NCBI GenBank assembly: GCA_023267215.1
Contig: JAHFNS010000001.1
Coordinates: 174,710-238,709 of the forward strand
Length of the DNA: 64,000 nucleotides
Reading direction: 5' to 3'
Origin: Candidatus Nomurabacteria bacterium
GTDB taxonomy: Bacteria > Patescibacteriota > Minisyncoccia > Phycocordibacterales > UBA9973
Of the stretch, positions 18,058 to 46,910 are shown one piece after another; the first letter of the stretch is position 1; every line of letters begins with the position of its first letter. The translations under genes were made by a program, and so were the position numbers. Under the pieces are notes generated by a model. That model was not told the DNA's origin, made no database searches, and saw only the letters and a list, made by a program, of their open reading frames with translations.

Positions 18058-18130
18058 AATCACCACCCCTTTCATCCCCTAGCCCATATTCACCTCACCC
18101 CTGCCCCTCTCCTTAGTGAAATAGAGGGGT
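18058..18130. repeat. GC-rich palindromic element, family 1 (CACCTCACCCCTGCCCCTCTCCTT...AGAGGGG), intergenic copy
   Basis: GC island in an AT-rich spacer between ATPase A and Cys-rich paralog 2; shares the CCCCTCTCCTT arm with the copies at 22441 and 26504. Confidence 0.6.
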
Positions 18131-18132
18131 TT

Positions 18133-19839
18133 TTAATATACCTCTTTATTATAACAACTCTTACAAAATATTTTTGGTGCTTCTTCTTTAGTGTAATGGG
18201 TTTTAAAATTAATACCACATTTGTCGCAATTTCTATCAACTTGTTTCATTTGAGAAACCCATATCTTTGCTTTTTCTTCTATTCTACAAAATGGACACTG
18301 TCTAGAAAGAGGCACATTTAATTTTTTTACTAAATCAAGTTCTTGTTTTGCTATTCTGTACCCTCTTGGACAAACACTGCATTTTATAATTTCTTTTAAA
18401 ATTTTGTCATCAGTATTTTTGATATTATCTGGAATTTCTGAAGAATCCAGTGTTATTGGATATTTTTCAAAAAAATGATTACGCCATTTCAATTTATATT
18501 CTTCGACTTCTTTTTCTGTTTTTGGAAATAAAAAGTTAGCATAAGAGTTATTATAAGCGTGTGGAGAAAATTCCATTGGGAAAAATTCTCCATATTTGTA
18601 GATATTTCCTTTTTTGTCTACATATGGCATTTTATTCATGTGTTCAATAATTTTTTCTTTCAATCTAAAATATTCTTCTTTTGTGTATTGTTTATTTAAA
18701 ATACAGTATTTTTTATTTCTTAAAGAGATACATCCAAAACAATCTGACCCTCCGACAACTGACTTACAATATTCTGCATCATTTAATCCCCACCCAGATT
18801 CATGGCTAAATTTAACATTAAATGGGTTCTCCCCGACTGTCACACATTCATAAATCAATTCAGCATTAAATCCCCAATCTACATAATCATAACTATCTTT
18901 CGTAGAGCCTTCTTTCATAAGCATAAGATATTTAGAATTTTCACAGTTTGTAACATCAAAACATTCTTGGCAATTTTTTGATCTAAAAACATAACTACCC
19001 GAAACATTTTTACTTTGAGTTGCCCATACTGGTTGAGGAATATTTTCTTTAAAATATTCCTGCGCTTTTTCTTTCCAATATTGATATTGTTTATATGAAC
19101 CTAAATCAATACTTTTCATTTTATTTTTATATTCCTCTTCAGAAAGTTTCTCACCCATAAATATATATGACCCATTTTTAACATTCACAGCACCCAAACA
19201 ATGATGCACCCCCTCGCAATCTCGAAGAAAGGCACTATCATAACAAAATCTATTATTACTCAAAGATCCTACAATATTAAAAGATTTAAAGAGGTTCGAG
19301 CAATCAAAACACTTTTCTGAATCAAAAACAACTGAACACATATATAAATCTTTATTTCTGGTTAGCCAAAAACTAGAGACACAATCTTCATTGTAATCCG
19401 AGTAATAAACTAAATATAAATTTTTTGAGTGAGCGACATGGTTAACATATGGAGAAGTTTTAATAGTCGCAAAATCGACATGTAAACTCAAAACAGGAGT
19501 TTTTTGCAAAAGTTCTCTCCATTGTTCCAAAAATGGTCTAGAAAAATCAATATTCATACCCATAACAAATGGATCCCAGTTATCACTCCACCAACATTTA
19601 ACACAGTAAACAGTAAAAGGCGTATTTGGTTCATACATAGAAAACCCTTCTTCTCCACAAAGATCACATTTCCGTTTAAATAAAGTAAAATTCGGCATCC
19701 AAATTAATCTTCTTTGTAATCGACAAGATGGGCAAAAAGTTGGTGGTGGAACTTTTATCTTTTCATAAAATCCAAAATCATCTGGCTCGATGATAAAGTC
19801 TTTTTTGCAATTTTTACATTGTCGCATTTCACTTTGCAT
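18133..19839 (-). CDS. Cysteine-rich repeat protein, paralog 2
   Basis: 568 aa; same N-terminal CKNCKKDFIIEPDDFGFYEKIKVPPPTFCPSCR and PYVDKKGNIYKYGEFFPMEFSPHAYN block; diverged C terminus. Confidence 0.8.
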   Translation of the reverse strand: MQSEMRQCKNCKKDFIIEPDDFGFYEKIKVPPPTFCPSCRLQRRLIWMPNFTLFKRKCDLCGEEGFSMYEPNTPFTVYCVKCWWSDNWDPFVMGMNIDFSRPFLEQWRELLQKTPVLSLHVDFATIKTSPYVNHVAHSKNLYLVYYSDYNEDCVSSFWLTRNKDLYMCSVVFDSEKCFDCSNLFKSFNIVGSLSNNRFCYDSAFLRDCEGVHHCLGAVNVKNGSYIFMGEKLSEEEYKNKMKSIDLGSYKQYQYWKEKAQEYFKENIPQPVWATQSKNVSGSYVFRSKNCQECFDVTNCENSKYLMLMKEGSTKDSYDYVDWGFNAELIYECVTVGENPFNVKFSHESGWGLNDAEYCKSVVGGSDCFGCISLRNKKYCILNKQYTKEEYFRLKEKIIEHMNKMPYVDKKGNIYKYGEFFPMEFSPHAYNNSYANFLFPKTEKEVEEYKLKWRNHFFEKYPITLDSSEIPDNIKNTDDKILKEIIKCSVCPRGYRIAKQELDLVKKLNVPLSRQCPFCRIEEKAKIWVSQMKQVDRNCDKCGINFKTHYTKEEAPKIFCKSCYNKEVY

Positions 19840-19842
19840 AAA

Positions 19843-20427
19843 TTATTTCTTAATAATTACAAAAGCTATGCCGTATTTAATGTTTACTTCTTTATATTCT
19901 ATATTTAATTCATCCAACTGTCTTTTCCATCTATTTAATGGAACAGCGAATTGTCCATTTGATAACAACTTCTCTTCTGTTTCATAATCCCCTTTATCCA
20001 TAACATGAATAGCAAATCCACCAGACCTGAGAGAATCATAAGAATTTTTTATTAGATCCCATTGTTTTTCAGTCTCTATAAATTTTAATAAAACATGAGC
20101 ATAAGTAATATCAAAAGGAGCGTTTGGTAAAGTTAAAGTACAGTCATGTTCTACAACATTTTCACCACCTAAAAGGTGATCAACTGTAATATCAAATGTT
20201 GTTATCAAAAGAGGCCTTGTGATAAATTCTTGAAAAATTTTCTCATGATAATATATAAATCTTTTATCTCCACAACCAAGCACTGCAATTTTTACTAAAT
20301 CACTTTTTGTTTCTAGTTTTACTTGCTTAAAAATAAGAAACAACTCGTCTCTTTTTTCTTTAACACGATTTTCAATTTCTTCGTCTGAATAACTTATGTA
20401 TTTTTTATGGTAATCACTTAATTGCAT
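19843..20427 (-). CDS. Small class I SAM-dependent methyltransferase-like protein
   Basis: 194 aa; motif I IAVLGCGDKRF, motif II-like PFDITYAHVLL, LRSGGFAIHV; 4 nt upstream of paralog 2, suggesting translational coupling. Confidence 0.55.
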   Translation of the reverse strand: MQLSDYHKKYISYSDEEIENRVKEKRDELFLIFKQVKLETKSDLVKIAVLGCGDKRFIYYHEKIFQEFITRPLLITTFDITVDHLLGGENVVEHDCTLTLPNAPFDITYAHVLLKFIETEKQWDLIKNSYDSLRSGGFAIHVMDKGDYETEEKLLSNGQFAVPLNRWKRQLDELNIEYKEVNIKYGIAFVIIKK

Positions 20428-20476
20428 ATTTTTATATTAAATTTAAATTGTTGATATAATTTTTTCTCCTAATTTT

Positions 20477-22201
20477 TTAATACACTTCAGCTTGATAACA
20501 ACGTTCACAATAAATTATCTCTTTTCTATCTGGTGCGTAAGAAGTCTCGAATTCATTTTGACAGCCTTCTTTCATGCATTTGCGATGCCAGAGCTTCATA
20601 GGGTTACGCTTCTTTAATCTAGCCTCATGCCTACAAAGAAAACACAGATGTTGTAATGGCACTCCTATCTTTCTATATAAATTCAATTCATCTGGTGTTA
20701 TTTTATAAGCTCCTCTACAATAATTACTTTCTTTGTCTTTATTCTCACAACCTATGACTTCTTTTGTTATAGAATCATCAACATCATCTAAGCTATCTGG
20801 AAGATCTTTAGCTTCTATTGTTATTTCATATTCATTTGCCTTTTTATCTCTCCATCTATAACCCATCTCTAACGCCTTCTGTTTTGTTATTGGAAAATAA
20901 TCTTGAGCTTGAGTCTCGTTATAACAAAATGTCGAAAGTTCTGCTGGAAAAAATTCTCCATATTTATATATTCTTCCTTTTTTGTCCACATACGGCATAT
21001 TCATCATGTGCTCTTTTATTTTGGAAATTAACTCTTCATATTTTTCTTTAGAATATTGTTTATTTAAAATACAGTATTTTTTATTTCGTAATCCAATACA
21101 ACCAAACAAATTTGAACATCCATGACAACTAATGGAATATTCAACATCACTAGAACTATAAACCACACTTGTAAAAAGATTACGATAATTCCCTATCCCA
21201 GTATCGAAACATTCATACACAAGCTCTGCAAACCCTATACCAGGACCAGAATCATAAGTATCTTTCACATTTTTTGCCAACCAATGAGAATTTTTTGTAT
21301 CTTCAACATTTCCACTAATATCAAAACAGGTTTTACAATTCTTTGCACCCTCTAGATTATCACCTGTCGAATTTACAGTTTTTATCTGAACGGCGAAACG
21401 GTGTATTGTTTTTAAACAAAATTCATCAAATTTATTTTTTTGCTCTATGACACTTTTATGTTTCTTAAGATTTAATTTTTCTAAGCGTGTGTTGTATTCT
21501 TCTCTCGTTAGTTGCTCATTCCACATACAGTATGATTTGTTGCGCAAGTTCGTACAACCAAAACAATTTGTACAACCCATACAATCATATAAAAAATATG
21601 AATCAACACAACTTTTACAATTGAAAGAATACAATAAATGATAACTATCAGCACATATCATATCTTCATAACAAAGTTCTGAACGATGTAATATATAAGA
21701 ATCTAAACACTCCCTAGTTTCTGAAATTCTATTTGAATAGAATGTTTTCTCAATTCTCCAAGAACCAGAAGACATATAGCTATCTTTACTTTCTTCTGCC
21801 ACATTACAATAATCACTATTCGTAGCATGTATATTTGAAAGACATTGTATAGGAACACGGTCTCTCAATTCTCTCCATTGTTCAAAAAAATTCTTAGAAA
21901 AATCATATTCCTTTCCATATGAAGTAGAATCCCATGCATCACTCCACCAATATTCTGAATCATATACACAAACTTTTTCTTCTGGAGAAATAAAAGAAAT
22001 TATCGTTTCACTATGATTTGGAGCATCACATTTTCTTCTAAAGAAAGACATTTCATTACGCCAACATAAACGCCGAATAGTCCGACATTCCGGACAAAAT
22101 GTAGGTGGCGGAACTTTTATCTTTTCATAAAAATGAAAATCTTCAGATTCTATCTTAAATTCTTGCTTACAATTTTGACATATTTTAATTTCTTCTTTCA
22201 T
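20477..22201 (-). CDS. Cysteine-rich repeat protein, paralog 3
   Basis: 574 aa; CQNCKQEFKIESEDFHFYEKIKVPPPTFCPECR N terminus; C-terminal KLWHRKCMKEGCQNEFETSYAPDRKEIIYCERCY. Confidence 0.8.
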   Translation of the reverse strand: MKEEIKICQNCKQEFKIESEDFHFYEKIKVPPPTFCPECRTIRRLCWRNEMSFFRRKCDAPNHSETIISFISPEEKVCVYDSEYWWSDAWDSTSYGKEYDFSKNFFEQWRELRDRVPIQCLSNIHATNSDYCNVAEESKDSYMSSGSWRIEKTFYSNRISETRECLDSYILHRSELCYEDMICADSYHLLYSFNCKSCVDSYFLYDCMGCTNCFGCTNLRNKSYCMWNEQLTREEYNTRLEKLNLKKHKSVIEQKNKFDEFCLKTIHRFAVQIKTVNSTGDNLEGAKNCKTCFDISGNVEDTKNSHWLAKNVKDTYDSGPGIGFAELVYECFDTGIGNYRNLFTSVVYSSSDVEYSISCHGCSNLFGCIGLRNKKYCILNKQYSKEKYEELISKIKEHMMNMPYVDKKGRIYKYGEFFPAELSTFCYNETQAQDYFPITKQKALEMGYRWRDKKANEYEITIEAKDLPDSLDDVDDSITKEVIGCENKDKESNYCRGAYKITPDELNLYRKIGVPLQHLCFLCRHEARLKKRNPMKLWHRKCMKEGCQNEFETSYAPDRKEIIYCERCYQAEVY

Positions 22202-22207
22202 TCTAAT

Positions 22208-22232
22208 ATTCTATAGAATTTTAGAATAGATA
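22208..22232. promoter_or_regulatory. Conserved upstream motif ATTCTATAGAAT-TT-TAGAATAGATAC ahead of paralog 3
   Basis: Same 12-bp palindrome plus TAGAATA as upstream of paralog 1. Confidence 0.4.
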
Positions 22233-24308
22233 CTATTCTAATACTTTTTTCAAAACATCTTCTGGTACTTCTTTAATTTCTTTTTTTTCTGTCACAATAT
22301 TTGCTGTATCTATTAAACTTTTTAATTTATCCATATCACTCCTACTTGCTGATTTATCTTTCAAGATATTTTTATGTTCAGGTTTTTCATTTTTTAATTC
22401 ACTCAGTGAAATTGCTGGAGGTTTAGGCACAACTATATTTCCCCTCTCCTTGGTAAGGAGAGGGTCAGGGTGAGGTAAATTTGTTTCATTCAACGCTTTA
22501 TCTAAAACTTCTTTTAATGCTGAATTATCTTTAGCTCCTAAAGGTTTTGATTTTATTTTAAATGGTTCAAAAGAAGGTTTTTTACTGAAAACTTTTTTAA
22601 TAGTTGAAAATATTTTAGGAGAAACAGGTGCTACTTTTTTAATTGGTGCAATATTTTTAATTGGAACAGCTTTACCAAATTCATAACACACAGGTTTATC
22701 TTCTCTGTATCTATCTTCTCCTTCTTTCACATCTATCTCTTCGTTTGTTATATCCTTGTTCTGAAATTCTATTCCTAAATCTGCCAATGGTTTATAAAAT
22801 TTTGTTTCATCTTGTTTTATTTGTTTCATTGAACCAGCCACTGGTTTCAATTCTCCTGCTTTTATTTTAGAGATGCAATCTTTACAATAAACAGCTCGGC
22901 CTGGTTCTGGTTTAAAAGGCACTAACGTATCTTTTTTACAAATAGAACAAACTGCCGGAAATTTCTCCATACTACCTATATCACTTTCGTTACCAAGAGA
23001 CATCCCGCTCCAATTATTAATTTCTCTTTCCACTACTTCTCTTGGTCGACAATAAAGTTCTCGAGAAGTCTTAATAACTTCATCTTCAATATCTTTGTTA
23101 CCAGATTTTACCATCGGCGGAAGAGTTTTAGCAGAAAATGGACGCGAAGAAACACCATCTATCATTAATTTCAAATAAATTTTGTAATTTGGCAAACTGA
23201 CAATATCTTGAGGGGTAAATTCTGGTTCAAATTCTTTTTCTAAAAATTCTGCATCATCTGCACCAACCCTAAAAATCATCATCGTGCCAACGTTACCAAA
23301 AATAGAATCTCTCACACTTGAATTTTTATCTGAAATTAATTGAGCAGTGTATTGATGTGCCACGGTCAAATTTAATCTATATTTTCTAGCCTCGGACAAG
23401 ATACCAGCAAAAGCCTCCGTCACGAAATTTTGAAATTCATCTACATAAAGATAAAAATCTTTTCTATCATCTTCTGGAATACGCACACGTTCCATTGCAG
23501 CCAATTGAATCTTAGTAATTATCATCCCTCCTAAGAGTGCGGAGTTGTCTTCACCGATACGCCCTTTGGAAACATTCACTAAAAAAATTTTCCCTTCATT
23601 CATTATGTCAAAAACATTTATGGTGCTTATGGATTGTCCGACTATATTTCGAATAATAGAAGTGGAAAGAAATTGTCCGACTTTGTTTTGAATAGGTGCA
23701 ATAGCTTCATTTCTAAATTTCTCTTGCCAGGCTTCATATTCATGAACCCAAAAAGCTTTAATGACTGGATCTTTTAAATTCGAAATTATTTTTTGACGAT
23801 AATCTTTATCCACCAACATTCGAGGTATACCTAATAGTGTCGAACCTGGAGTATCAAGCAAAGCTAAAATAGTATTATTTAAAATATATTCCATACGGGC
23901 AGACCAAGCATTTGCCCAAATTTTCGTAAAGATACCCATCAATCCAGAAGCCACTAAATGTTTATACTTTGGATCAACAAGTTCAAGTACATTGAAACCA
24001 ATATGAAAATCTGCATCGGCTGGATTAAAATAAATAACATCTTTCATGCGGTGTGGCGGAATGGCAGAAAGAATGGCTTCCACATTTTCTCCGTGCGGGT
24101 CAACCATACAAACGCCGTCACCATTTTCAATGTTCTGAATGATCATATTAAACATCAAAGCAGATTTACCAGTACCAGACTTTCCAAGAATATAAACATG
24201 CTGACGCCTGTCTTTGCGCTTGATACCAAAAAGCTGGTTTTTATCCCTGTAAGTAGTGTAACCAATATAAGTAAGTTCTTTATTTTTAGGTATTTCCTTC
24301 AGGTCCAT
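22233..24308 (-). CDS. P-loop ATPase of the FtsK/HerA/VirD4 superfamily, paralog B, with a C-terminal CxxC...CxxC zinc-ribbon extension
   Basis: 691 aa; Walker A ILGKSGTGKS, Walker [13 protein letters not shown]; about 45% identical to paralog A over the ATPase core; C-terminal CSICKKDTLVPFKPEPGRAVYCKDC; contains an in-frame GC-rich element at 22441..22476. Confidence 0.75.
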   Translation of the reverse strand: MDLKEIPKNKELTYIGYTTYRDKNQLFGIKRKDRRQHVYILGKSGTGKSALMFNMIIQNIENGDGVCMVDPHGENVEAILSAIPPHRMKDVIYFNPADADFHIGFNVLELVDPKYKHLVASGLMGIFTKIWANAWSARMEYILNNTILALLDTPGSTLLGIPRMLVDKDYRQKIISNLKDPVIKAFWVHEYEAWQEKFRNEAIAPIQNKVGQFLSTSIIRNIVGQSISTINVFDIMNEGKIFLVNVSKGRIGEDNSALLGGMIITKIQLAAMERVRIPEDDRKDFYLYVDEFQNFVTEAFAGILSEARKYRLNLTVAHQYTAQLISDKNSSVRDSIFGNVGTMMIFRVGADDAEFLEKEFEPEFTPQDIVSLPNYKIYLKLMIDGVSSRPFSAKTLPPMVKSGNKDIEDEVIKTSRELYCRPREVVEREINNWSGMSLGNESDIGSMEKFPAVCSICKKDTLVPFKPEPGRAVYCKDCISKIKAGELKPVAGSMKQIKQDETKFYKPLADLGIEFQNKDITNEEIDVKEGEDRYREDKPVCYEFGKAVPIKNIAPIKKVAPVSPKIFSTIKKVFSKKPSFEPFKIKSKPLGAKDNSALKEVLDKALNETNLPHPDPLLTKERGNIVVPKPPAISLSELKNEKPEHKNILKDKSASRSDMDKLKSLIDTANIVTEKKEIKEVPEDVLKKVLE
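22441..22476. repeat. GC-rich palindromic element, family 1 (CCCCTCTCCTTGGTAAGGAGAGGGTCAGGGTGAGGT), inside the CDS in frame
   Basis: Perfect 11-bp inverted repeat; encodes PDPLLTKERG in ATPase B. Confidence 0.6.
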
Positions 24309-24357
24309 ATAGGTAAATTATACATCCTGTAGTCAATTTTAACAATATATTTCAGTC

Positions 24358-24393
24358 AAAAAAAAGACGGAAGCCTTGCTTCCGTCTTTTTTT
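24358..24393 (-). terminator. Intrinsic terminator downstream of dnaK (GACGGAAGC-CTT-GCTTCCGTC plus T-run)
   Basis: 9-bp perfect stem flanked by A-run and T-run (bidirectional). Confidence 0.7.
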
Positions 24394-24394
24394 C

Positions 24395-26416: not shown

Positions 26417-26974
26417 ATGTCAAGTAAAAATGAATATTCTAATAAAATACTTAAAATTCTAGGTGAAAAACCAGTTATTCCTGTAGACGAAGTAAAAAGA
26501 ATTCACCTCTCCCCAACCCCTCTCCTTGATAAGGAGAGGGGCGAAGGGGTGAGGTCTGGCTATGCCTTAAATCGTTCAATAAAAAACTTAATTGAATCTG
26601 GATGCGTAGATATGATTCAATCTGATAATCAAAATTATTTAAAATTAACCAAAAAAGGGAAAAATAAATTAAACTCTATTAAGCTTGAAGGAGATCAAGC
26701 TCTCGTATCTAACACTTGGGATGGTTTGTGGAGAATAATAATTTTAGATATTCCAGAAAACAGAAAAAACGAAAGAGAAAGTTTACGTTATCTTTTAAAG
26801 AAAGCCGATTTCGTTTGTATTAAGAATACTGTTTGGATATCACCTTTCCCTTATGAACATCTTTTTACAAATATCAAAAAAGATTTAGGTCTCGGTACTG
26901 AACTGATGATTATCGTCACCGACAAAATTGACGAGGAAACAAAACTCGCTTTTTTGAAAAGTCTCAAAAAATAG
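26417..26974 (+). CDS. Hypothetical protein: N-terminal winged-helix-like region plus a C-terminal Cas2/VapD-like segment
   Basis: 185 aa; WDGLWRIIILDIPENRKNERESLRYLLKKADFVCIKNTVWISPFP resembles the Cas2 beta1-alpha1 core pattern; contains an in-frame GC-rich element. Confidence 0.4.
   Translation: MSSKNEYSNKILKILGEKPVIPVDEVKRIHLSPTPLLDKERGEGVRSGYALNRSIKNLIESGCVDMIQSDNQNYLKLTKKGKNKLNSIKLEGDQALVSNTWDGLWRIIILDIPENRKNERESLRYLLKKADFVCIKNTVWISPFPYEHLFTNIKKDLGLGTELMIIVTDKIDEETKLAFLKSLKK
26504..26555. repeat. GC-rich nested palindromic element, family 1 (CACCTCTCCCCAA-CCCCTCTCCTTGATAAGGAGAGGGG-CGAAGGGGTGAGGT), in frame
   Basis: Inner perfect 11-bp stem plus outer complementary arms; encodes LSPTPLLDKERGEGV. 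Confidence 0.65.
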
Positions 26975-27000
26975 GAAATTTAAAAAATTTTAAGAGTCGT

Positions 27001-27045
27001 GTTGGTCCCCTGTCCTCTTGACTCCGAGGGCGAAGGCTCAAGAAA
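27001..27045. repeat. Degenerate GC-rich element (...GAGGGCGAAGGCTCAAG), intergenic
   Basis: Shares GAGGGCGAAGG with the 26504 copy; GC island in an AT-rich spacer. Confidence 0.35.
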
Positions 27046-27072
27046 TTTTTTGAAATTCCCTATTTTTTATTT

Positions 27073-28990: not shown

Positions 28991-30706
28991 TTAGTATATC
29001 TCTTTTTTATAACATTCACTACAAATGACTTTTTTAGGGCCACCCTCTGACTCCGATCTATATGTCGTATCTATTTCTTTTTTACATAAAAAACACGATC
29101 TCCTATTTAATCTCATTGGATTACGAAGTTTTAATCTTCTATTGTGTCGTTCATCTGGATGGACAGACGGCAAAGGTAAATCAAATCTTCTATAAAAATT
29201 TAATTCTTGTTCTATTATTTTGAAAGGCCTGCCAGTAACTTCACATTCAATGACCTCATTTAAAATTGAATCATCTACTTCAGAAATTGTTTGTGGTAAA
29301 TCTTTACCTTTTATTGTAACTTTATAAGAACCAGAAATATACTCACGCCAAAGATATCCTTTTTCTTCTGCTATTTTTTCACTAATTGGAAAATAATCTT
29401 GAGCAACAGTTTCATTATAGGCAAATGGCGAAAGTTCAGATGGAAAAAATTCACCAAACTTATATATTTTCCCCTCTTTATCTACATATGGCATATCTAG
29501 CATATGCTGTTTGATTTTTGGAAGCAAATTTTCATATTCCTCTTTCGTATATTGTTTATTTAAAATACAATATTTTTTTCTATTCATTTCTGTGCAACCA
29601 AAACAATCCTGACAGTTATTCATCATAAAACTATAATAGATATCCCTAGAATACCAAATAATGGCACCTAAAAAACATCTACTGTTGTAAACACCAATAC
29701 TTATGCCTTCGTAAGTTAATTCTGAATTACCTCCAGATCCAGGGCCTACATCATAGGCATCACTACATCCTTGACTACCCCAATTTGCATATTTTACATT
29801 TTGAAATTCACCATCTAAATCAAAAACGTTATAACAATTGCGTGAATTATATACGTGATCACCAACAACATTTGTCGTGTTTATAAGTTTTACATCTCTG
29901 TGTAAAGCTTCCTGCCAAAGTTTTTTAAATTTATTTCTAGCTTCTTCTATGCCATGACGTGTATCAAGAGCAAGCGCATCTTTCTTTTTCAAATATTCTT
30001 CTTTTGTATATTGAATATTCTCAATACAATAATTTTTGTTTCTCAAATTTGTGCACAAAACACAATCCGAACAATTTCTACAGTCATATAGGAAATAAGA
30101 ATCCAAACATCCTTCACTTTCTAGTGAAAAAAATAATCGACTAGAATCTCGGCAATATACATTTTCATATCCAAATTCCATATCATAACAAATATAAGAA
30201 TCTTGAATAAATTTACATCTAGAGACCCTGTTGCAATATAAAGAATCCTCACAATTCCAAGCTGCAGTAATTAAATAACAATTTTTTAGTTCTACACTTA
30301 CATTACAAAATCTAGAATTTACCGACTTTGAATCGGATAAGGCAAGATGTGGTACTTCCTCTATAAGATTAGCAAATTGCTCAAAAAATGGCTTAGAAAA
30401 ATCATAATCTCTGCCATGGGAAGATGAATCCCATCGATCGCTCCACCACATTTCCTTATCATAAGTTTTTACCTTAGCATCAGGATGAAAAACTGAAATA
30501 ATTAAATCTTTTTTACCCTCTTCTGCATTTGGTCTCTTAAAAAGTGAATGTTCATTACGCCAAACAAGCCGACGAATAAGTCTACACTCCGGACACCAAG
30601 TCGGCGGAGGGACTTTTATTTTTTCATAAAATTTAAAATCTTCCGGTTCTATCATGAAGTTTTGTTTACAATTCTGACATATTCTTTTTTCTTGTTTATA
30701 TTCCAT
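28991..30706 (-). CDS. Cysteine-rich repeat protein, paralog 4
   Basis: 571 aa; MEYKQEKRICQNCKQNFMIEPEDFKFYEKIKVPPPTWCPECR; C-terminal ribbon partly degenerate (SVHPDERHNRR in place of CPNCRHYQR). Confidence 0.8.
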   Translation of the reverse strand: MEYKQEKRICQNCKQNFMIEPEDFKFYEKIKVPPPTWCPECRLIRRLVWRNEHSLFKRPNAEEGKKDLIISVFHPDAKVKTYDKEMWWSDRWDSSSHGRDYDFSKPFFEQFANLIEEVPHLALSDSKSVNSRFCNVSVELKNCYLITAAWNCEDSLYCNRVSRCKFIQDSYICYDMEFGYENVYCRDSSRLFFSLESEGCLDSYFLYDCRNCSDCVLCTNLRNKNYCIENIQYTKEEYLKKKDALALDTRHGIEEARNKFKKLWQEALHRDVKLINTTNVVGDHVYNSRNCYNVFDLDGEFQNVKYANWGSQGCSDAYDVGPGSGGNSELTYEGISIGVYNSRCFLGAIIWYSRDIYYSFMMNNCQDCFGCTEMNRKKYCILNKQYTKEEYENLLPKIKQHMLDMPYVDKEGKIYKFGEFFPSELSPFAYNETVAQDYFPISEKIAEEKGYLWREYISGSYKVTIKGKDLPQTISEVDDSILNEVIECEVTGRPFKIIEQELNFYRRFDLPLPSVHPDERHNRRLKLRNPMRLNRRSCFLCKKEIDTTYRSESEGGPKKVICSECYKKEIY

Positions 30707-30840: not shown

Positions 30841-32622
30841 TCATACAAATTCAGCTTGATAACATTTCTCACAATATACTATTTCCTTCCTTTCGTCACT
30901 TATAGCTGTCTCAAATTCATTCTGGCAAGGACTATTATCATGTGTATGTTTTATGGTATTTTTATATACACCATCTTTTGATTCTACACCATTACACATA
31001 CATTTTCTATGCCATAATTTCGGTGGATTTTTCTTTTTTGTACGTTGTATGTATCTACAATTAGGACATAAATGCGGTAAGGTTATATTTATTTGTCTGT
31101 GAAATTGTAGCTCATTAGGCAATATACGGAAAGCCTCTGTACATTGTTCATTACATTCTCCTTTATGTTCACATTCTATTACTTCGTTTAAAATCGAATC
31201 TTCTACATCTTTAATATCATCTGGTAAATCTTCAGCTTTTAAAGTAACTCTATAATTTCTTTCTTTTTCTTCATGCCATTTAAATCCTTTTTCTAGAGCT
31301 TCTTCTTTACTTAAAGGAAAATATTTATGAGCCCATGTTTCATTGTAAGAGAATAAAGAAAGATCACTCGGAAAATGCTCCCCATATTTATATATCTTTC
31401 CACAACTATCTATATGTGGCATATCCATCATATGCTGTTTGATTTTAGGAATTAATTCCTCATATTCCTCTTTAGTATATTGTTTATTTAAAATGCAATA
31501 TTTTTTATTTTTTAGATTTGTGCAACCAAAACAATTTGAACAATTATATATTTTATTAGAATATTCAATATCTTTAGAGTCATAACAGGCACGGCTAAAA
31601 AAACAACGTTGAGAATGCATCCCTCCGGTATTTTCATAATAAAGTTCTGTATTACCACCACATAAAATGGCATCATAACTATCTTTCATTAAAAGACCAG
31701 CCATAAAAATAAACTTGCTGTTTTCAACCCCCATACGTGTAGCAAAACAAAATTGACAATTTTTAGTATTTCTAAGATCGTCCCCAGTTACATTTACAGA
31801 ATTAGTTATTAAAGCAAATCGTCTTGGAATTTTATAATAAAAATCCCAGAATTTTTCTTCTATTTTTTTTAAAGTACCATAACTACTTAAATTCCAATTT
31901 TTGATTTCTTTTTCATATTCTTCTTTTGTATATTTCTTGTTAAAGATACAATATTTTTGATTTCTCAAATTTACACAACCAAAACAGTTCGAACATCCAA
32001 TACAATTTAAAAGAAATGCGGAATCCATACATTCATCTGAAAAATAAACAAATTTAGTGTTATAAACCCCATTTGAGTCTAAAGTTTCATATATGTGGTC
32101 ACCATTTATTATAAAATCAGAATCCATAGAATCACGAACAAAACCAGGGGTTTGACAGTTATAACAATTAATTGATTCATAGCCATCAAATGTCAGCATG
32201 CAATTTTTACAACGGATATTCCCATTACAATAACCAAGATCAGAGGAGTTTTTAGATCCCGTCGCTTGATTTGGTACAACTTTTTGCAATTCATAAAATT
32301 GTTCTAAAAATGGCTTTGAAAAATCATATTCCCTACCATATTCTATTCCATCCCAAGAATCTCCATGCCAACATGAAATACAATAAACCTTAAATGGAGA
32401 ATTTTCATTATAAATACTTATAATTTCTTTATTACAATTTTCACATTTATCCTTATAGAGAGATCTATCTTCACGATAAGCAAGACGTCTTATCATTCTA
32501 CACTCCGGACACCAAGTCGGTGAAGGTACTTTTATCTTTTCATAAAAATTAAAATCTTCCGGCTCTATTGTGAAGTCTTTTTTGCAATTCTGACATATTC
32601 TTTTTTCTTGTTTATATTCCAT
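30841..32622 (-). CDS. Cysteine-rich repeat protein, paralog 5
   Basis: 593 aa; same N terminus as paralog 4; C-terminal CEHKGECNEQCTEAFRILPNELQFHRQINITLPHLCPNCR with a 20-aa insertion. Confidence 0.8.
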   Translation of the reverse strand: MEYKQEKRICQNCKKDFTIEPEDFNFYEKIKVPSPTWCPECRMIRRLAYREDRSLYKDKCENCNKEIISIYNENSPFKVYCISCWHGDSWDGIEYGREYDFSKPFLEQFYELQKVVPNQATGSKNSSDLGYCNGNIRCKNCMLTFDGYESINCYNCQTPGFVRDSMDSDFIINGDHIYETLDSNGVYNTKFVYFSDECMDSAFLLNCIGCSNCFGCVNLRNQKYCIFNKKYTKEEYEKEIKNWNLSSYGTLKKIEEKFWDFYYKIPRRFALITNSVNVTGDDLRNTKNCQFCFATRMGVENSKFIFMAGLLMKDSYDAILCGGNTELYYENTGGMHSQRCFFSRACYDSKDIEYSNKIYNCSNCFGCTNLKNKKYCILNKQYTKEEYEELIPKIKQHMMDMPHIDSCGKIYKYGEHFPSDLSLFSYNETWAHKYFPLSKEEALEKGFKWHEEKERNYRVTLKAEDLPDDIKDVEDSILNEVIECEHKGECNEQCTEAFRILPNELQFHRQINITLPHLCPNCRYIQRTKKKNPPKLWHRKCMCNGVESKDGVYKNTIKHTHDNSPCQNEFETAISDERKEIVYCEKCYQAEFV

Positions 32623-32664: not shown

Positions 32665-34335
32665 TTAATTGATATTTTGTTTATAACACTCTTCGCAGGC
32701 TATTTTTTGATATCCCCATTCTGGTAAATAATATGCTTCTATATCCTTTTTACAATAAATACATTTGTATGGATATACTTGCAATACCATCAAATCTTTC
32801 AAGATATTTTTTATTCTCACATCAAAATGTAATCTCGGAAGTGGAATATTATTTTCTTTATAAAAAATAAGTTCATTTTTTGCAATATTAAAACGCCATC
32901 CTGTCTCCGGGCAAATGAGTGCTTGGGTAACTATCGTATCTTCTACATCTTTAATATCATCTGGTAATTGATTTGTCGGCATACCTTCTACATTATTTTC
33001 AACAACATCTTCCCAGTAACCCCCAAGTTTTAAAATATCCTCTTTTTTCGTATCAGGAAAATATAAAAATGCACTGGAAAAATTGAAAGGTCCAGCGCTC
33101 ATAGAATAAGGTAAAAACTTTCCATATTCTTCTCTTTTCTTCATATCAGAAATAATTTTATTTTTTAATTCTTCATACTGTTCTTTAGTATATTGTTTAT
33201 TTAAAATACAATATTTCTTCTTCTTTAAGCCAACACAACCAAAACAATATTCACATTCAATACATAGATCTAAATATTCAGAATATCTAGATGAAGACCA
33301 GTTAGAGTACTTGAGTGCATAATTCTTATCACAACAACTACAATTACCAGATAATTCTGAATACCAACAACCATTAGCATCAATATCGGATTTTTTTCTC
33401 ATTCCTCGAATACAATTCGAGCAATCCTCAGATTCATTTATTGTATTACAATTATGACAATTTTTTACATCTAGTAGATAATCGCCATCAGAACCATAAG
33501 CTCTCATATTAAAGTTTTCTCTATGGACTACTTCTTTTTGAACAATTTCATCAAAATGTCTCTTATAATCTTGTATTGATTCATACGAGCCGAGTTTGAA
33601 TAATTTTAATTTTTCCAAATATTCTTCCCTTTTATATTGAATATTTTCTATACAATATGATTTTCCCCTTAAATTCCAACACATAAAACAATTCTGGCAA
33701 TTGCGACAATCATACAAGAAATAGGAATCTATGCAATCGCGGGAATGTTTAGAGAAAAAAAGTCTATAAGAATGGTGACATTCTGAAATTTCATAGCATT
33801 TTTCACAATCAAAACATATTGTTGCGTCCAGGGAATTTTTAACTTTTATGTTTCTATATGAATAGAATAAATCTTCACATTCTTCCATAGAACGAGATAA
33901 GTAACAATTTTTAGAATTCCATACATCATCACACCAATCACAGCCAGTATTTTTTTTACCGTTCTGATGAGGATGAGGGACTTTTTCTTGAAGCTCTTGA
34001 AGTTGTTCAAAAAATGATTTATTTTCATCATAATCTTGACCGTAATCCATAGCATCCCATTTGTCGCTATACCATTCGGAAGATGTATAGATTGGATAAC
34101 GACTTTTTTCCGGTAATACTGTGATCAAGCTTTCACCTGAGAGGTCAGACTTGCCTTTTCTAAATTTTCCAAACATCCAAAAAGATAAATGTATCTTTAC
34201 ACGACAGAAAAAACATATGGTTGGTAATTCTATGCCAACTTTTTCATATAAAGAAAGTTCCCCCTCTGTTATGGTAAATAGATTTAGACAGTGCTCACAA
34301 GTTTTACTTTGCGTTTTCATTGTACTCAAAAACAT
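32665..34335 (-). CDS. Cysteine-rich repeat protein, paralog 6 (most divergent)
   Basis: 556 aa; retains the CxxCxxCF(G/M)CxxL plus KKKYCILNKQYTKEQYEEL modules; N and C termini diverged; start overlaps the grpE stop. Confidence 0.7.
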   Translation of the reverse strand: MFLSTMKTQSKTCEHCLNLFTITEGELSLYEKVGIELPTICFFCRVKIHLSFWMFGKFRKGKSDLSGESLITVLPEKSRYPIYTSSEWYSDKWDAMDYGQDYDENKSFFEQLQELQEKVPHPHQNGKKNTGCDWCDDVWNSKNCYLSRSMEECEDLFYSYRNIKVKNSLDATICFDCEKCYEISECHHSYRLFFSKHSRDCIDSYFLYDCRNCQNCFMCWNLRGKSYCIENIQYKREEYLEKLKLFKLGSYESIQDYKRHFDEIVQKEVVHRENFNMRAYGSDGDYLLDVKNCHNCNTINESEDCSNCIRGMRKKSDIDANGCWYSELSGNCSCCDKNYALKYSNWSSSRYSEYLDLCIECEYCFGCVGLKKKKYCILNKQYTKEQYEELKNKIISDMKKREEYGKFLPYSMSAGPFNFSSAFLYFPDTKKEDILKLGGYWEDVVENNVEGMPTNQLPDDIKDVEDTIVTQALICPETGWRFNIAKNELIFYKENNIPLPRLHFDVRIKNILKDLMVLQVYPYKCIYCKKDIEAYYLPEWGYQKIACEECYKQNIN

Positions 34336-38720: not shown

Positions 38721-38722
38721 AA

Positions 38723-38955: not shown

Positions 38956-39201
38956 TTAAAACCTTTTTATTATTCTTCCTTTTCCACCATAAGGATCGAG
39001 TACGACCTCTACAGAATCCCCAATTAAAACTTTAATTCTATGCATACGCATTTTTCCACTAAGATAAGCCAGAATTTCTTTCTTCCCTTCTATATTACTT
39101 TCTGTTTTATCTTCAATTTGAACTCTAAACAAAGTAGAAGGTAATGATTCAGTAATAACCCCTCTAGTCGTTAAAATTTTTTCGTTTTTTAAATCACTCA
39201 T
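38956..39201 (-). CDS. infA: Translation initiation factor IF-1
   Basis: 81 aa; S1-like OB fold; GVITESLPSTLFRVQIE...MRMHRIKVLIGDSVEV. Confidence 0.9.
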   Translation of the reverse strand: MSDLKNEKILTTRGVITESLPSTLFRVQIEDKTESNIEGKKEILAYLSGKMRMHRIKVLIGDSVEVVLDPYGGKGRIIKRF

Positions 39202-39253
39202 TAAGTACTATGATTATAATAAATATAAAACTTTAAGTCAAAGCACAATGTTG

Positions 39254-39297
39254 ATAAGCTGGGCTTAAGGAAACTTCTCCTAAGCCCAGCTTACGGG
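39254..39297. repeat. Long hairpin TAAGCTGGGCTTAAGGA-AACTTC-TCCTAAGCCCAGCTTA (CCTAAGC palindrome family) at the 3' end of paralog 7
   Basis: About 16-bp stem read directly; shares its core with the 14098, 41021 and 50635 copies. Confidence 0.6.
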
Positions 39298-39300
39298 AAA

Positions 39301-41004: not shown

Positions 41005-41005
41005 A

Positions 41006-41044
41006 ACTGTGGATAACTGCCCCTAAGCCCAGCTTAGGAGAGAT
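41006..41044. repeat. CTGTGGATAACTGCCCCTAAGC-CCA-GCTTAGGAG (DnaA-box-like motif plus CCTAAGC palindrome) at the 5' side of paralog 7
   Basis: Near-identical to 14086..14123 with the loop inverted. Confidence 0.6.
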
Positions 41045-42354: not shown

Positions 42355-42363
42355 AATATAATT

Positions 42364-43566: not shown

Positions 43567-43590
43567 AAATGTAATTGTATCATAAAAACT

Positions 43591-45234
43591 CTATAGAAGC
43601 ACAGCCTTTATACGTCTAACTCCAGCTGAAACAGCTTCTTCTTTTATTATTTTAAATTGTCCTAATTCACCTGTATTTTTGACATGCGGCCCTCCACAAA
43701 ATTCTTTTGAAATTTGATTCCCATCTTTGTCTTCAATAAAATATACGCTCACCATATCTGGGTATTTAGCTCCGAATTCCATTTCTGCCCCTATTTTTTC
43801 TGCCTCAGAAAGAGGCATTTCACAACGAATAACGTCAAGCTTATTTTCTATTTTTTCATTAACAAAATCTTCTACTTTCTTTTTTTCTTCATCTGTTAGT
43901 TTGTGATCACAAATGAAATCTATACGCAAACGTTCTTCTGTGATATTACTTCCCTTTTGTTTTATATTTTTATCAACAATATTTTGTAAACCAGCTAAAA
44001 GTAAATGATGTGCAGTATGTAATCTAATAGTTTTTTCATTATGATTAAGAAGTCCACCCTTGAACATTCCCGCCGAAGCAGTCTGCGAAAGCCTCTGGTG
44101 TTCTGCCATTTTTTTATTAAAATCTTCTAAATCTATCTTTTGTTCTTTCTCTTTTGCAAGCTCAAGAGTAAGCTCGATTGGGAAACCATAAGTAGTAGCC
44201 AAAATAAATGGATCTTCTCCTCTTTCAAATTCTTTTAAACCTCTACCTAGCGTTTCTCTAAATTTTTGTTCTTCTTTATTTATTTCTCCATTATCATTCA
44301 AAACATAAATACCTTCATACCTTTTTTTATTTCTTTCAATTATTTTTTCTAATGGCTCCTTAGAAAATCTTACAGCCCTGCGTACTAATCTCCTCAAAAC
44401 ATATCCTCGTCCAGTATTAGAAGGTAAAACTCCATCAGAAATAATAAAAAGTGCAGCTTTTATATGGTCAGAAATAATTCTCTCTTCTTTTGCCTTTTCT
44501 CCATTAAATAAATCCGTATCATAAACACTTTCTTTTTTTTGTACTATCGAAACCAATCTTTCAAGTCCCATACCTGTATCAATACCCAATATATCTAGCT
44601 TTTTAAGGGTTACCTCACCTTTATCTAATTTTTCTCGAGAACCATCACAAAAATACTCATTGAAAACTATATTCCAAATTTCAACATCTTCTCCGTTTGC
44701 ATTTTTGCAATAAACTTCTGTAGTTCTACCACAAGGACCAGAATTTCCTGTCGGTCCCCAAAATACATCTTCCCCTTCTTCTTTTATATTTTTAACTCCG
44801 ATTTCTTTCCAAATTCTTTCTGACTCTTCATCTTTCGGAACATTTTTACTTCCTTTATAAACTGTCACATAAGAAATATCCAAATTCATTTCTTTAGTAA
44901 TAAAATCATAAGCATACTCTATCGCTTCTTTTCTTCCATATCCACCAAAAGAAAAATTACCCAACATTTCAAAAAATGTTAAATGCGTAGAATCTCCGAC
45001 TTCATCAATATCTCCTGTACGTATACATTTTTGAATAGTGGTTACATTTAAACTTCCAAAATCTTTTTCTGCATCCTTTGGATTAATATAATAAGGTTTA
45101 AATTGTTGCATTCCTGCCGTTGTAAAAAGTACTGAAGGATCATTCTCAGGTATTAATAAAGAAGAAGGTATTATTTTGTGTCCTCTTTTCTCAAAAAACT
45201 TTAAAAATCTTGACCTAATTTCATTTGAATCCAT
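43591..45234 (-). CDS. alaS: Alanyl-tRNA synthetase, short form (catalytic plus editing domains, no C-Ala domain)
   Basis: 547 aa; FTTAGMQQFKPYY catalytic motif; editing-domain HTAHHLL and CGGPHV zinc motifs. Confidence 0.85.
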   Translation of the reverse strand: MDSNEIRSRFLKFFEKRGHKIIPSSLLIPENDPSVLFTTAGMQQFKPYYINPKDAEKDFGSLNVTTIQKCIRTGDIDEVGDSTHLTFFEMLGNFSFGGYGRKEAIEYAYDFITKEMNLDISYVTVYKGSKNVPKDEESERIWKEIGVKNIKEEGEDVFWGPTGNSGPCGRTTEVYCKNANGEDVEIWNIVFNEYFCDGSREKLDKGEVTLKKLDILGIDTGMGLERLVSIVQKKESVYDTDLFNGEKAKEERIISDHIKAALFIISDGVLPSNTGRGYVLRRLVRRAVRFSKEPLEKIIERNKKRYEGIYVLNDNGEINKEEQKFRETLGRGLKEFERGEDPFILATTYGFPIELTLELAKEKEQKIDLEDFNKKMAEHQRLSQTASAGMFKGGLLNHNEKTIRLHTAHHLLLAGLQNIVDKNIKQKGSNITEERLRIDFICDHKLTDEEKKKVEDFVNEKIENKLDVIRCEMPLSEAEKIGAEMEFGAKYPDMVSVYFIEDKDGNQISKEFCGGPHVKNTGELGQFKIIKEEAVSAGVRRIKAVLL

Positions 45235-45238
45235 AAAC

Positions 45239-45727
45239 TTATCTTTCTTTATTTAAATTTTCATCAGAAATTCTTCTAATTGGTTTTTCAAGAATATTAA
45301 GAAAAATAAAAATCAAAAGTACTAAAATAGTTGATATAATTGCAAGATTAAAAAGTCCGAATCCAGCAGCCATACCAATGCCTGCAGTCACCCAAAGTCC
45401 ACCAGCGGTCGTAAGCCCCCTTGTACGAGAATCTCTGAACATTATCATACCAGCGCCAAGAAAGCCGATACCCACAATAATATTAGAAGCTATCATTACA
45501 GGATTAAAACCTGGTGTATTTATATATTTTTCTCCCATAGTCTCAGAAATCATTATAAAAAGAGCTGCTCCCATAGAAACAAGGGCATGAGTTTTCATTC
45601 CCGCTTCTTTATGTACCAAAAGACGTTCAACACCAATAAGCATTCCTAAAACTATCGCTACTATTAATTTTAAAAAAATATCACTATTTTGTATAAAAAA
45701 TTGTTCCATATAATAATCATACAACAA
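45239..45727 (-). CDS. MgtC/SapB-family membrane protein
   Basis: 162 aa; LIVAIVLGMLIGVERLLVHKEAGMKTHALVSMGAALFIM MgtC signature. Confidence 0.75.
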   Translation of the reverse strand: MLYDYYMEQFFIQNSDIFLKLIVAIVLGMLIGVERLLVHKEAGMKTHALVSMGAALFIMISETMGEKYINTPGFNPVMIASNIIVGIGFLGAGMIMFRDSRTRGLTTAGGLWVTAGIGMAAGFGLFNLAIISTILVLLIFIFLNILEKPIRRISDENLNKER

Positions 45728-46910
45728 TTCCTCCGCCTAAACAAACATCTTTATCATATATGACACAAGATTGCCCAGAGGCCACCAATATAGGTTTTTT
45801 AAATATAACCTCTGCGGAAGCCTTGCTTCCGCAAATTACATTACAGGTCAAAAATTCACTATGATAACGAATTTGAGCTGTGTAAGTTTTATCTTGTTTA
45901 GGAGTAGTAAAGATCCAATTTATATTACTTATTTTAATTTCTTCCCCTCCTTGATGAGGAGGGGTGCCCTTTAGGGTGGGGTGGTGCTTTTTAGAATTAC
46001 CACCCCCTGCCCCCTCCTCCACGAGGAGGGGGTTAAGATTTTTGTCTTGCGACACATATAAAATATTTTTCTTTATATCTTTACCAACTATATAATAGGC
46101 TCCATCATTAGGACTTTTTTTAATAATAGTAAAACCATGACGTTCTCCTAAAGTATGGAAAACTACTCCATCGTGATATCCAATTTCTTCTCCTTTTTCA
46201 TTCCCCGCCTCTGACGGGGCAAGCAAAACTTTTCCCTTTTTTTCTTTAATATAATGTTTCAAAAAATCTTTCAAATCTACAGCCCCTAGAAAGCAAATAC
46301 CCTGGCTATCTTTTTTAAGAGCGACTGGCAATTTGAATTTTTTAGCAAGCTTGCGGACTTCTGTTTTTTTTAGATGACCTATAGGAAATAAAATTCTACT
46401 TAATTGCTCTTGCTTCAATGTCCACAAAAAATATGATTGATCTTTTGAAGGGTCAATGCCTTTTCTTAAATTTTTGGAAAAAGTCGGCCCTTTTTGAATT
46501 CTTAAGGGCCGGCCTTCTCCAAAAATTTGTGCATAATGCCCTGTTGCGATGTAGTCAGCTCCCATAGCAATTGCTTTTTTAAGAAAAGCCCCAAATTTCA
46601 CTTCTTTATTACACATCACATCAGGATTCGGCGTTCTCCCTCTCTTATATTCGGCAATCATATAGTCTGCAACTTCTTTTTTATACACGTCACTCAAATC
46701 AAAAGTAAGAAATGGAATATCCAAAAAAGCTGCGACGCGCATAGCGTCCAGGCGTTCTTCTTCTTCATTACATTCCAAGAAATCCGGATGCCAAGTACGT
46801 ATAAAAACCCCGACTACGTCATAGCCTTGTTTTTTTAATAATGCTGCACTTACAGCAGAATCAACACCACCAGATAAACCAACAAATACTACTTTTTTAT
46901 TCTTTTTCAT
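45717..46910 (-). CDS. mnmA: tRNA-specific 2-thiouridylase MnmA
   Basis: 397 aa; PP-loop VGLSGGVDSAVSA; conserved catalytic Cys; carries an ~85-nt GC-rich in-frame insertion encoding EEGAGGGNSKKHHPTLKGTPPHQGGEE. Confidence 0.85.
   Translation of the reverse strand: MKKNKKVVFVGLSGGVDSAVSAALLKKQGYDVVGVFIRTWHPDFLECNEEEERLDAMRVAAFLDIPFLTFDLSDVYKKEVADYMIAEYKRGRTPNPDVMCNKEVKFGAFLKKAIAMGADYIATGHYAQIFGEGRPLRIQKGPTFSKNLRKGIDPSKDQSYFLWTLKQEQLSRILFPIGHLKKTEVRKLAKKFKLPVALKKDSQGICFLGAVDLKDFLKHYIKEKKGKVLLAPSEAGNEKGEEIGYHDGVVFHTLGERHGFTIIKKSPNDGAYYIVGKDIKKNILYVSQDKNLNPLLVEEGAGGGNSKKHHPTLKGTPPHQGGEEIKISNINWIFTTPKQDKTYTAQIRYHSEFLTCNVICGSKASAEVIFKKPILVASGQSCVIYDKDVCLGGGIVV
45944..46032. repeat. Composite GC-rich palindromic element (CCCCTCCTTGATGAGGAGGGG ... 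GGTGG..CCACC ... CCCCCTCCTCCACGAGGAGGGGG), in frame inside mnmA
   Basis: Two hairpins related to the family 1 core plus a third stem; strongly GC-rich against the surrounding coding sequence. Confidence 0.6.

Follow-up and report, generated by a model that had tools for sequence, protein, structure and literature searches.

Introduction

[quoted passage not shown] In organelles, the GC clusters in the mitochondrial genomes of yeast and other organisms and the palindromic repeats of green algae are GC-rich palindromic mini-elements that invade AT-rich compact genomes. Their insertions include in-frame ones in protein genes and nested ones, and no enzyme is known to act on them. RPEs are said to have been described by Ogata and colleagues in 2000. 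Heterocystous cyanobacteria reportedly carry the small dispersed repeats (SDRs) of Elhai and colleagues from 2008, which are said to be 21-27 nt long, to form hairpins and to be nested within other repeats. Here we describe a 25-nt GC-rich hairpin that recurs, with a short companion tail, in a 64-kb stretch of DNA (the window) from a Candidatus Nomurabacteria bacterium of the Candidate Phyla Radiation (CPR; contig JAHFNS010000001.1 of assembly GCA_023267215.1). We found copies inside and between protein-coding genes of the window and the same core in many other phyla. These copies are probably very small, non-coding and non-autonomous palindromic DNA elements.

In the account given in PMC10969869, RPEs are about 100-150 bp long, fall into ten sequence families and are reported from Rickettsia. 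SDR4, SDR5 and SDR6 (Elhai et al. 2008, Genome Res 18:1484) are reported to be mobile and confined to Nostocaceae, SDR5 inserting precisely into HIP1. REPs and their doublets, the REPINs, are imperfect palindromes of 20-40 nt, often arranged as inverted doublets, which are extragenic and enriched near the 3' ends of genes. They usually have a GTAG or CGTC head, and a gene for a REP-associated tyrosine transposase (RAYT) is found in the same genome. REPs are non-autonomous and are thought to be moved in trans by this hairpin-specific HUH tyrosine transposase (PMC3116915; PMC3733652; PMC12306157).

Results

Palindromic inserts in the window

The window has a GC content of 32.3%, and synteny and protein matches identify its host as a CPR bacterium of the Paceibacteria/Nomurabacteria type. 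The original prediction, made from the sequence of the window, had pointed to five GC-rich palindromes and had likened them to RPEs. Four of these five sites are real, so that one 64-kb window contains three copies of one family (family 1) and one related composite (Table 1). The family-1 set comprises a complete nested palindrome in a PaaX-like gene and two truncated copies. Each basic unit is a hairpin of 25 nt, in which an arm of pyrimidines only, CCCCTCTCCTT, and an arm of purines only, AAGGAGAGGGG, enclose a free 3-nt loop. On one side of the hairpin or, in inverted orientation, on both, a tail of 10 nt, GGGGTGAGGT, stands at a distance of 2-3 nt. We scanned the window for both motifs, permitting at most one mismatch and using 100 shuffles as controls. 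The arm CCCCTCTCCTT has five matches against 0.55 expected (five or more in 0 of 100 shuffles), and the tail has four against 0.89 expected (four or more in 2 of 100 shuffles). All four tail matches lie within 5 nt of hairpins.

Table 1. Palindromic inserts of the window, and further copies in a phage contig and in loci with a paired hairpin
Feature	Coordinates or loci	Strand	Fold or remark
Complete family-1 element, PaaX-like gene	26504..26555	.	-36/-38 kcal/mol, z = -4.6 on both strands
Single-tail family-1 unit, C-terminal linker of VirD4/TraG-like ATPase	22441..22476	+	z = -2.4/-3.3
Degenerate intergenic family-1 unit	18092..18129	-	fold not significant, z = -1.3
Composite element, mnmA site 3	45939..46034	-	-56 to -60 kcal/mol, z = -5.2
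Different in-frame palindromic insert, mnmA site 1	46467..46526	-	-32.2 kcal/mol, z = -7.2
Possible mini-hairpin insert, mnmA site 2 (weak evidence)	46196..46216	-	z = -1.1
Copies in phage contig L124	1907, 3752, 4408, 6607, 7216		
Loci with paired hairpin	L029, L060, L063, L067, L068, L086, L091, L093, L095, L097, L111		mostly Dehalococcoidia metagenome-assembled genomes; L091 labelled delta proteobacterium

The copy in the PaaX-like gene is a perfect nested palindrome. It consists of a tail, (C)ACCTCTCCCC (26505-26514), the hairpin CCCCTCTCCTT-GAT-AAGGAGAGGGG (26517-26541) with a perfect 11-bp stem, and a second tail, GGGGTGAGGT (26546-26555). It encodes HLSPTPLLDKERGEGVRS within an open reading frame (ORF) for a PaaX-like protein of 185 aa (26417-26974, PF20803). 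This protein has more than 1,800 relatives with a common length of 171-172 aa, and the orthologues of that length, which are the majority, have no counterpart of the 13 residues HLSPTPLLDKERGEGVRS in the protein alignment. Other relatives hold, at exactly this place, the same family-1 peptide, the shorter peptide ITTPNPLLHKEG (encoded by CCCCCCTCCTC-AAC-AAGGAGGGG), a 30-residue composite TPLLNKEGVGGGNSKNHHLALKGTPPKKGG or other GC-rich palindromes. The composite TPLLNKEGVGGGNSKNHHLALKGTPPKKGG is the same peptide as the insert in mnmA of the window. This insertion polymorphism is also visible in the DNA alignment, where filled and empty alleles differ by a net gap of 39 nt (13 codons) that corresponds to tail plus hairpin, and insert-bearing alleles recur in independent assemblies. 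In the AlphaFold model, the insert is a coil in the loop at residues 32-46, with a predicted local distance difference test score (pLDDT) below 50.

The composite in mnmA contains hairpins at 45944-45964, at about 45966-45977, at 45978-46006 (GGGGTGGT...ACCACCCC) and at 46010-46032. Two or three hairpins had been predicted here, and there are four. The arms CCCCTCCT / CCCCCTCCTC are a distinct variant, related to family 1 and not family 1 proper. Since the tails GGGGTGGT / ACCACCCC point towards each other at the centre of the composite, it amounts to two hairpin-plus-tail units joined tail to tail. It encodes 32 residues, NPLLVEEGAGGGNSKKHHPTLKGTPPHQGGEE, and this peptide is also found in PaaX-like proteins, other MnmA proteins and one TsaD fragment. 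MnmA orthologues are 361-459 aa long and have three variable sites at which several insert families occur, one family being found at different sites. The composite occupies site 3, between the PRC-barrel and the C-terminal barrel according to an alignment to solved MnmA structures, which have about 24 fewer residues there. In the orthologues, site 3 is filled in some, empty in some and taken by unrelated inserts in others. Site 1, a hyper-variable insertion position among the orthologues, one of which holds the composite there, is occupied in the window by a 60-nt palindrome that has AT-rich stems on the outside and GGCCGGCCCTT / AAGGGCCGAC as its core, and that encodes IFGEGRPLRIQKGPTFSKNL. 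At site 2, a possible insert, a weak mini-hairpin of 21 nt, GCCCCGTC-AGA-GGCGGGG, encodes LAPSEAG, and many orthologues are 7-10 residues shorter there. In the AlphaFold model of MnmA (mean pLDDT 61), residues 295-333 (site 3) and 125-159 (site 1) are coils with pLDDT < 50. Surface loops had been expected for the inserts, and the models of both proteins place them in loops of low confidence.

The alignment of MnmA orthologues (P0125, P0133, P0136, P0149, P0157, P0162, P0214 and P0216) contains other recurrent insert peptides, which occur at different sites in different relatives, for example LLFHGSHSNLN...AYAEKSTALYFL and ELPEGPNPVIRGRAQGRKIGR. These peptides suggest further mobile insert families in the lineage. 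In addition, a common 17-nt palindrome core, CGGAAGC-CTT-GCTTCCG, is present at 24359-24393 and 45811-45835 (2 copies against 0 expected). The former copy, located between dnaK and the ATPase gene, forms a terminator-like hairpin flanked by A7/T7. The latter lies in mnmA and encodes CGSKASA, a motif found in only some MnmA orthologues, with the length unchanged.

The predicted element in the ATPase gene is a hairpin with one tail: (C)CCCTCTCCTT-GGT-AAGGAGAGGG(T) is followed by CAGGGTGAGGT, and the copy encodes LPHPDPLLTKERG. Its host is a VirD4/TraG-like ATPase of 691 aa (ORF 22233-24308, minus strand). The orthologous place is occupied in two relatives (L145 and L180), in one of them in a different reading frame. 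The linker is poorly conserved, so that a clean insertion cannot be shown for this copy. The intergenic element had been placed at 18058-18130, of which only 18092-18129 is recognisable, as a tail ACCTCACCCC and a hairpin with a mutated, decayed right arm. This unit begins 3 nt past the stop codon of an ORF on the minus strand (18133-19839). Intact orthologous intergenic copies were found at five loci of relatives (L134:709, L149:2120, L135:484, L198:1799 and L204:1562), and a variant at another (L148:224). Among the syntenic stretches of at least 12 kb (40 loci from relatives plus the window), 29 of 41 have no such hairpin.

Anatomy of the element and its distribution across phyla and phages

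We then examined the element across genomes by an exact-match scan of 596 Gb with the pattern CCCCTCTCCTTNNNAAGGAGAGGGG (22 fixed bases). The exact 25-mer CCCCTCTCCTT-NNN-AAGGAGAGGGG has matches in at least 120 genome stretches, against a chance expectation that we estimate at about 0.03. Among the matches listed, 149 of 153 copies have the tail GGGGTGAGG (at most one mismatch) within 45 nt, on one side in 93 and on both sides in 56; in the latter, the tails ACCTCACCCC / GGGGTGAGGT form inverted repeats. The spacer between hairpin and tail is usually 2-3 nt; where a further small hairpin lies between the two, it is 12-23 nt. The loop triplet varies freely (38 variants), and the arms CCCCTCTCCTT, CCCCTCCTT and CCCCCTCCTCC represent variants in which both arms changed together. 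Units join each other or other short hairpins to form nested or tail-to-tail composites. The arms, read directly from the sequence, have no stop codon in any frame. Copies of a net length divisible by three can therefore persist in genes as loop peptides rich in Pro, Leu, Gly, Glu and Arg.

Along its purine strand, the element has the sequence AAGGAGAGGGG...GGGGTGAGGT, and along its pyrimidine strand ACCTCACCCC...CCCCTCTCCTT (for example at 26505-26555 of the window). With the central G/C runs removed, these strands resemble an extended Shine-Dalgarno sequence, AAGGAGGTGA, and the 3' end of 16S rRNA, TCACCTCCTT, and the variant arm CCCCTCCTT is one base off CACCTCCTT. This likeness may be a coincidence of composition.

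By their labels, the largest share of the matches listed comes from Nostocales, including isolates and complete genomes. Other labels are Bacteroidota, Ignavibacteria/Melioribacteraceae, Chthonomonadaceae (62-66% GC), Dehalococcoidia, Leptospirales, Desulfobacterales and Fibrobacteres, and the broader ones among the matches listed include Chloroflexi, Armatimonadota and several CPR classes (Nomurabacteria, Falkowbacteria, Uhrbacteria and Saccharibacteria). Two metagenome-assembled genomes (MAGs) are labelled Bathyarchaeia, an assignment that could not be verified. For locus L057, the Pfam matches were not diagnostic of an archaeal origin. The original prediction had likened the element to RPEs and had taken such behaviour to be undescribed in the lineage of the window. 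The 25-mer is not peculiar to this lineage and is carried by many phyla and by phages. According to PMC12306157, REP consensus motifs share little similarity across phyla, which makes the common core described here unusual.

The surroundings of the core differ between groups. In Nostocales, the module is central in a longer, AT-richer inverted repeat. In Dehalococcoidia, the 25-mer forms a lineage-specific composite: it is regularly paired with a second conserved hairpin, AGAGGGGC-N4-GCCCCTCT, and only one of its sides bears a tail (GATTAAGGGGGTGAGGTT). In Ignavibacteria, one tail is GGGGAGAGGT. A BLAST search of plasmids with a 62-nt consensus gave one match, from Brasilonema, without annotation. 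The 25-mer is also present in nine viral stretches. One of these, L124 (IMGVR_UViG_3300048592_001291), is a 7.3-kb Mu-like contig of 45% GC with five copies whose flanks are nearly identical. Two of them are in frame, in a Mu-F-like protein and in the large terminase, which makes this phage a possible vehicle for horizontal spread.

Copies inside genes and between genes

Long ORFs contain three of the four copies in the window and, in other CPR loci, six of 12, the hosts there being Dus, MgsA/RarA, PheT, TsaD, TsaE and one unassigned ORF. In low-GC loci outside CPR, only 6 of 92 copies are in long ORFs. The prediction that all coding copies encode a PLL(D/T)KERG-like peptide holds for both family-1 coding copies of the window; elsewhere, all three reading frames are used (PLLxKERG in 10 copies, PLS[LF]xRRG in 8 and PSPxKGEG in 1). 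In large cyanobacterial genomes, the copies are mostly intergenic and near the 3' ends of genes. The intergenic copies show a bias towards 3' ends, with a median distance of 113 nt to a gene 3' end against 238 nt to a 5' end; 14 of them are in convergent regions and only two in divergent regions.

The predicted in-frame insertion of tolerated peptide loops agrees with what we observed: the PaaX-like, ATPase and mnmA ORFs all stay in frame, and the alignments of orthologues show that most PaaX-like proteins do without the 13-residue segment and some MnmA proteins without the 32-residue segment. The evidence goes against both outcomes by which the original prediction would have been refuted, an ancestral feature encoded by AT-rich DNA and copies that are unique.

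Comparison with known systems

The inserts resemble RPEs in being non-coding palindromic repeats of a reduced, AT-rich genome that lie in frame in unrelated housekeeping genes and would be tolerated as extra peptide segments. As with RPEs, several families coexist and no transposase is known. Judged by the predicted ORFs of the window, in-frame insertion is common to both. The same inserts recur at different sites, in different proteins and between genes, and orthologues lack them, so that an RPE-like way of working is supported. Membership in the RPE family is another matter: the units described here measure 25-51 nt and the composite 96 nt, against about 100-150 bp, they are GC-rich with homopyrimidine and homopurine arms, and they occur in a CPR host and in many phyla. 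Set apart by size and host, the element is not a member of the RPE family, and we have no evidence of a sequence relationship.

In size and in its cyanobacterial occurrence, the element resembles SDRs. It is a 25-nt hairpin, within the range of 21-27 nt, Nostocales dominate the matches listed, and there it is nested in longer inverted repeats. It differs from SDRs in that it also occurs in CPR, Ignavibacteria, Chloroflexi, Armatimonadota, Bacteroidota and phages, and in CPR often inside genes. The element may be an SDR or a relative of SDRs. No description of it was found in the papers searched. What may be new is the spread across phyla and into genes in CPR, and a possible overlap with SDRs limits this novelty.

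With REPs, the element shares the small palindromic form, the doublet (in the mnmA composite), the 3'-end bias and a probably non-autonomous nature. Unlike REPs, its copies occur within ORFs and its core is the same in many phyla. Its flanks are ACCTCACCCC / GGGGTGAGGT, and no GTAG or CGTC head is present among the copies listed. No RAYT gene was seen next to the copies in 129 loci or in the Pfam lists of syntenic CPR loci; whole genomes were not searched. Terminal inverted repeats, as in MITEs, are formed by the tails in 56 of the 153 copies among the matches listed, the other tailed copies (93) having one tail only, and no target duplication is visible in the compared flanks, which are only 85-93% identical. 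The element is like the GC clusters and the algal repeats in being a GC-rich palindromic mini-element that inserts in frame into genes; it differs in that these belong to organelles and, by description, to unrelated sequence families.

Neither the structure nor the peptides match known families. Scans against Rfam, of the window at the gathering threshold and of the element and eight loci by E-value, yielded nothing but tRNAs and chance matches of a miRNA-like kind, and Pfam and NCBIfam scans with the insert peptides gave no match. A query with a duplicated 40-aa peptide returned no candidates, and a search of a library of 1.8 billion representatives with the 32-aa composite, which was underpowered, returned only four matches at E <= 0.001.

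Other hairpins and genes of the window

The fifth predicted site, 27001-27045, had been called a degenerate copy. It contains no family-1 motif, its fold is not significant (z = -0.4 and -0.06) and it is the centre of a different palindrome, and it was therefore ruled out as a member of the family. That palindrome (26962-27072, 110 nt) has long AT-rich stems and a GC-rich centre (z = -4.0 and -3.4) and takes up the intergenic region where the PaaX-like gene and an ABC transporter gene converge. It might serve as a bidirectional terminator, or represent another MITE-like element.

A third GC-rich hairpin family, CCCCTAAGC-NNN-GCTTAGGGG, has four copies in the window against 0 expected (14099-14119, 39277-39297, 41020-41040 and 50634-50654), each located downstream of a minus-strand gene, at 3-20 nt from its stop codon. 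Beyond the hairpins at 14099 and 41020, the transcribed strand continues with CAGTTATCCACA, a perfect DnaA-box-like TTATCCACA, and then the ATG at which the next gene begins.

The window also contains a series of ORFs of about 550-590 aa (14122-15834, 18133-19839, 20477-22201, 28991-30706, 30841-32622 and 32665-34335). They are interleaved with two VirD4/TraG-like ATPases bearing a treble-clef zinc finger, an arrangement that is conserved in relatives. The one member of the series that was scanned, the Cys-rich ORF 18133-19839, has no Pfam match, and there are none on record for syntenic genes of similar size in relatives.

Discussion

Mechanism and alternative explanations

If the copies are small non-autonomous DNA elements, they would spread, or would once have spread, as DNA hairpins mobilised in trans. 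The mobilising enzyme would recognise the hairpin and its tail, and a single-strand, hairpin-specific HUH/RAYT-like transposase seems the most plausible candidate. The elements would land preferentially in or beside existing hairpins, or at gene ends. A preference for existing hairpins would explain the hot spots, and horizontal transfer, for example on phages, would account for the common core. We infer this mechanism from the distribution of the copies, which fits the selfish, mobile nature ascribed to them in the original prediction; neither an enzyme nor a recent transposition event was found.

Several points weigh against such mobile elements. In an all-against-all comparison of the 729 ORFs within 2.5 kb of copies, only clusters of TPR proteins and ABC ATPases emerged, with no mobilising enzyme. 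No recurrent protein family adjoins the copies in 129 loci or appears in the Pfam lists of syntenic CPR loci, and no related autonomous insertion sequence with the same ends was found among the ORFs neighbouring the copies. Neither a target-site duplication nor a clean pair of empty and filled sites was seen, the closest flanks being only 85-93% identical. The intergenic, ATPase and PaaX sites are occupied in relatives as distant as 58-62% PaaX identity, so that many copies may be old and inherited and not recently moved. The occupancy of hot spots may reflect either repeated targeting or old insertions with frequent loss. The ATPase copy alters the length of its host by only about five residues, in a low-complexity variable linker, and the intact GC-rich state of the elements in a genome of 32% GC could reflect selection for a function. 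Finally, the non-cyanobacterial records with the 25-mer are all MAGs, and the counts come from an exact-match scan.

Alternatively, the elements could be copied by the host itself. Replication or repair, by template switching or gene conversion between hairpins at stalled forks and subsequent quasi-palindrome correction, would spread hairpins without a dedicated transposase, and would create composites and hot spots while keeping both arms complementary. This is in line with the joint changes of both arms, as in CCCCTCTCCTT, CCCCTCCTT and CCCCCTCCTCC, with the re-use of the PaaX, ATPase and intergenic sites by different variants, and with the lack of a target duplication and of a transposase linked to any copy (among the 729 ORFs) or listed in the Pfam content of the syntenic CPR region. 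However, host copying leaves the first arrival at hairpin-free sites in unrelated genes unexplained, and the constant spacing of 2-3 nt in distant phyla and the identical core in phages and phyla suggest sequence-specific recognition; we regard it as unlikely. REP-type hairpins are known to stabilise upstream mRNA (reviewed in PMC12306157), and the hairpins described here could likewise be functional cis-elements under selection, serving as 3'-end mRNA stabilisers or terminators or as signals that interact with ribosomes in translation. Both the purine arm, AAGGAG(A)GGGG, and the tail, GGGGTGAGG, have a Shine-Dalgarno-like sequence, the pyrimidine arm is similar to the 3' end of 16S rRNA, and a conserved common binding partner, and not mobility, might then lie behind the similarity across phyla. 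The 3'-end bias, the location of the intergenic copy 3 nt past a stop codon (and, similarly, of four copies of another hairpin family), the long occupancy of orthologous sites and the persistence of perfect GC-rich stems at 32% GC can all be read in this way. On the other hand, copies in housekeeping genes, in three frames and both orientations of the asymmetric unit, are not expected of a strand-specific signal, most orthologues do without the hairpins, no U-tract follows the hairpin on the transcribed strand at 18104-18129, and no Rfam family was matched, so that a cis-acting function seems quite unlikely.

The segments might also be ancestral or low-complexity linkers, or artefacts of assembly or binning, with incidental palindromy. 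The ATPase copy does lie in a low-complexity, poorly conserved linker, and the genome of the window and all non-cyanobacterial records with the 25-mer are metagenome assemblies. But the same DNA recurs in genes unrelated to each other, in intergenic regions and in the genomes of cyanobacterial isolates, insert-bearing alleles come from independent assemblies, the 11-bp stems are perfect (z = -4.6) and most orthologues lack the segments. Recurrence, isolates, stems and orthologues thus contradict both an ancestral protein feature and an assembly artefact, and we consider either very improbable.

If the copies are indeed non-autonomous DNA elements, one could go further and regard them as a single ultra-small hairpin replicator, made of a 25-nt core and a 10-nt tail with arms that are stop-free in all six frames. 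It would move by a mechanism for which no element-encoded or linked enzyme is needed, would keep a near-invariant core in at least 10 bacterial phyla, phages and possibly archaea, and would time and again have given rise to new surface loops in essential proteins of the streamlined CPR genomes. We put this forward tentatively, as a possibility that we do not favour over a narrower account. If true, no small mobile DNA so far described in prokaryotes would be more widely distributed, in contrast to the lineage-specific REPs, REPINs and RPEs, and the element would have supplied new loops to tRNA-modification enzymes, an aminoacyl-tRNA synthetase and repair proteins. The fixed companion tail and the common 25-nt core offer a comparative handle, and profiling the presence of the element against that of gene families could reveal the mobilising activity.

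Implications for CPR proteins

Part of the length variation and of the extra loops in CPR proteins is due to invading DNA hairpins and not to adaptive protein evolution. This is relevant to annotation, to alignment-based phylogeny and to structure prediction. The inserts also mark natural insertion-tolerant positions, which accept 13-32 residues, in MnmA, TsaD, TsaE, Dus, RarA and PheT.

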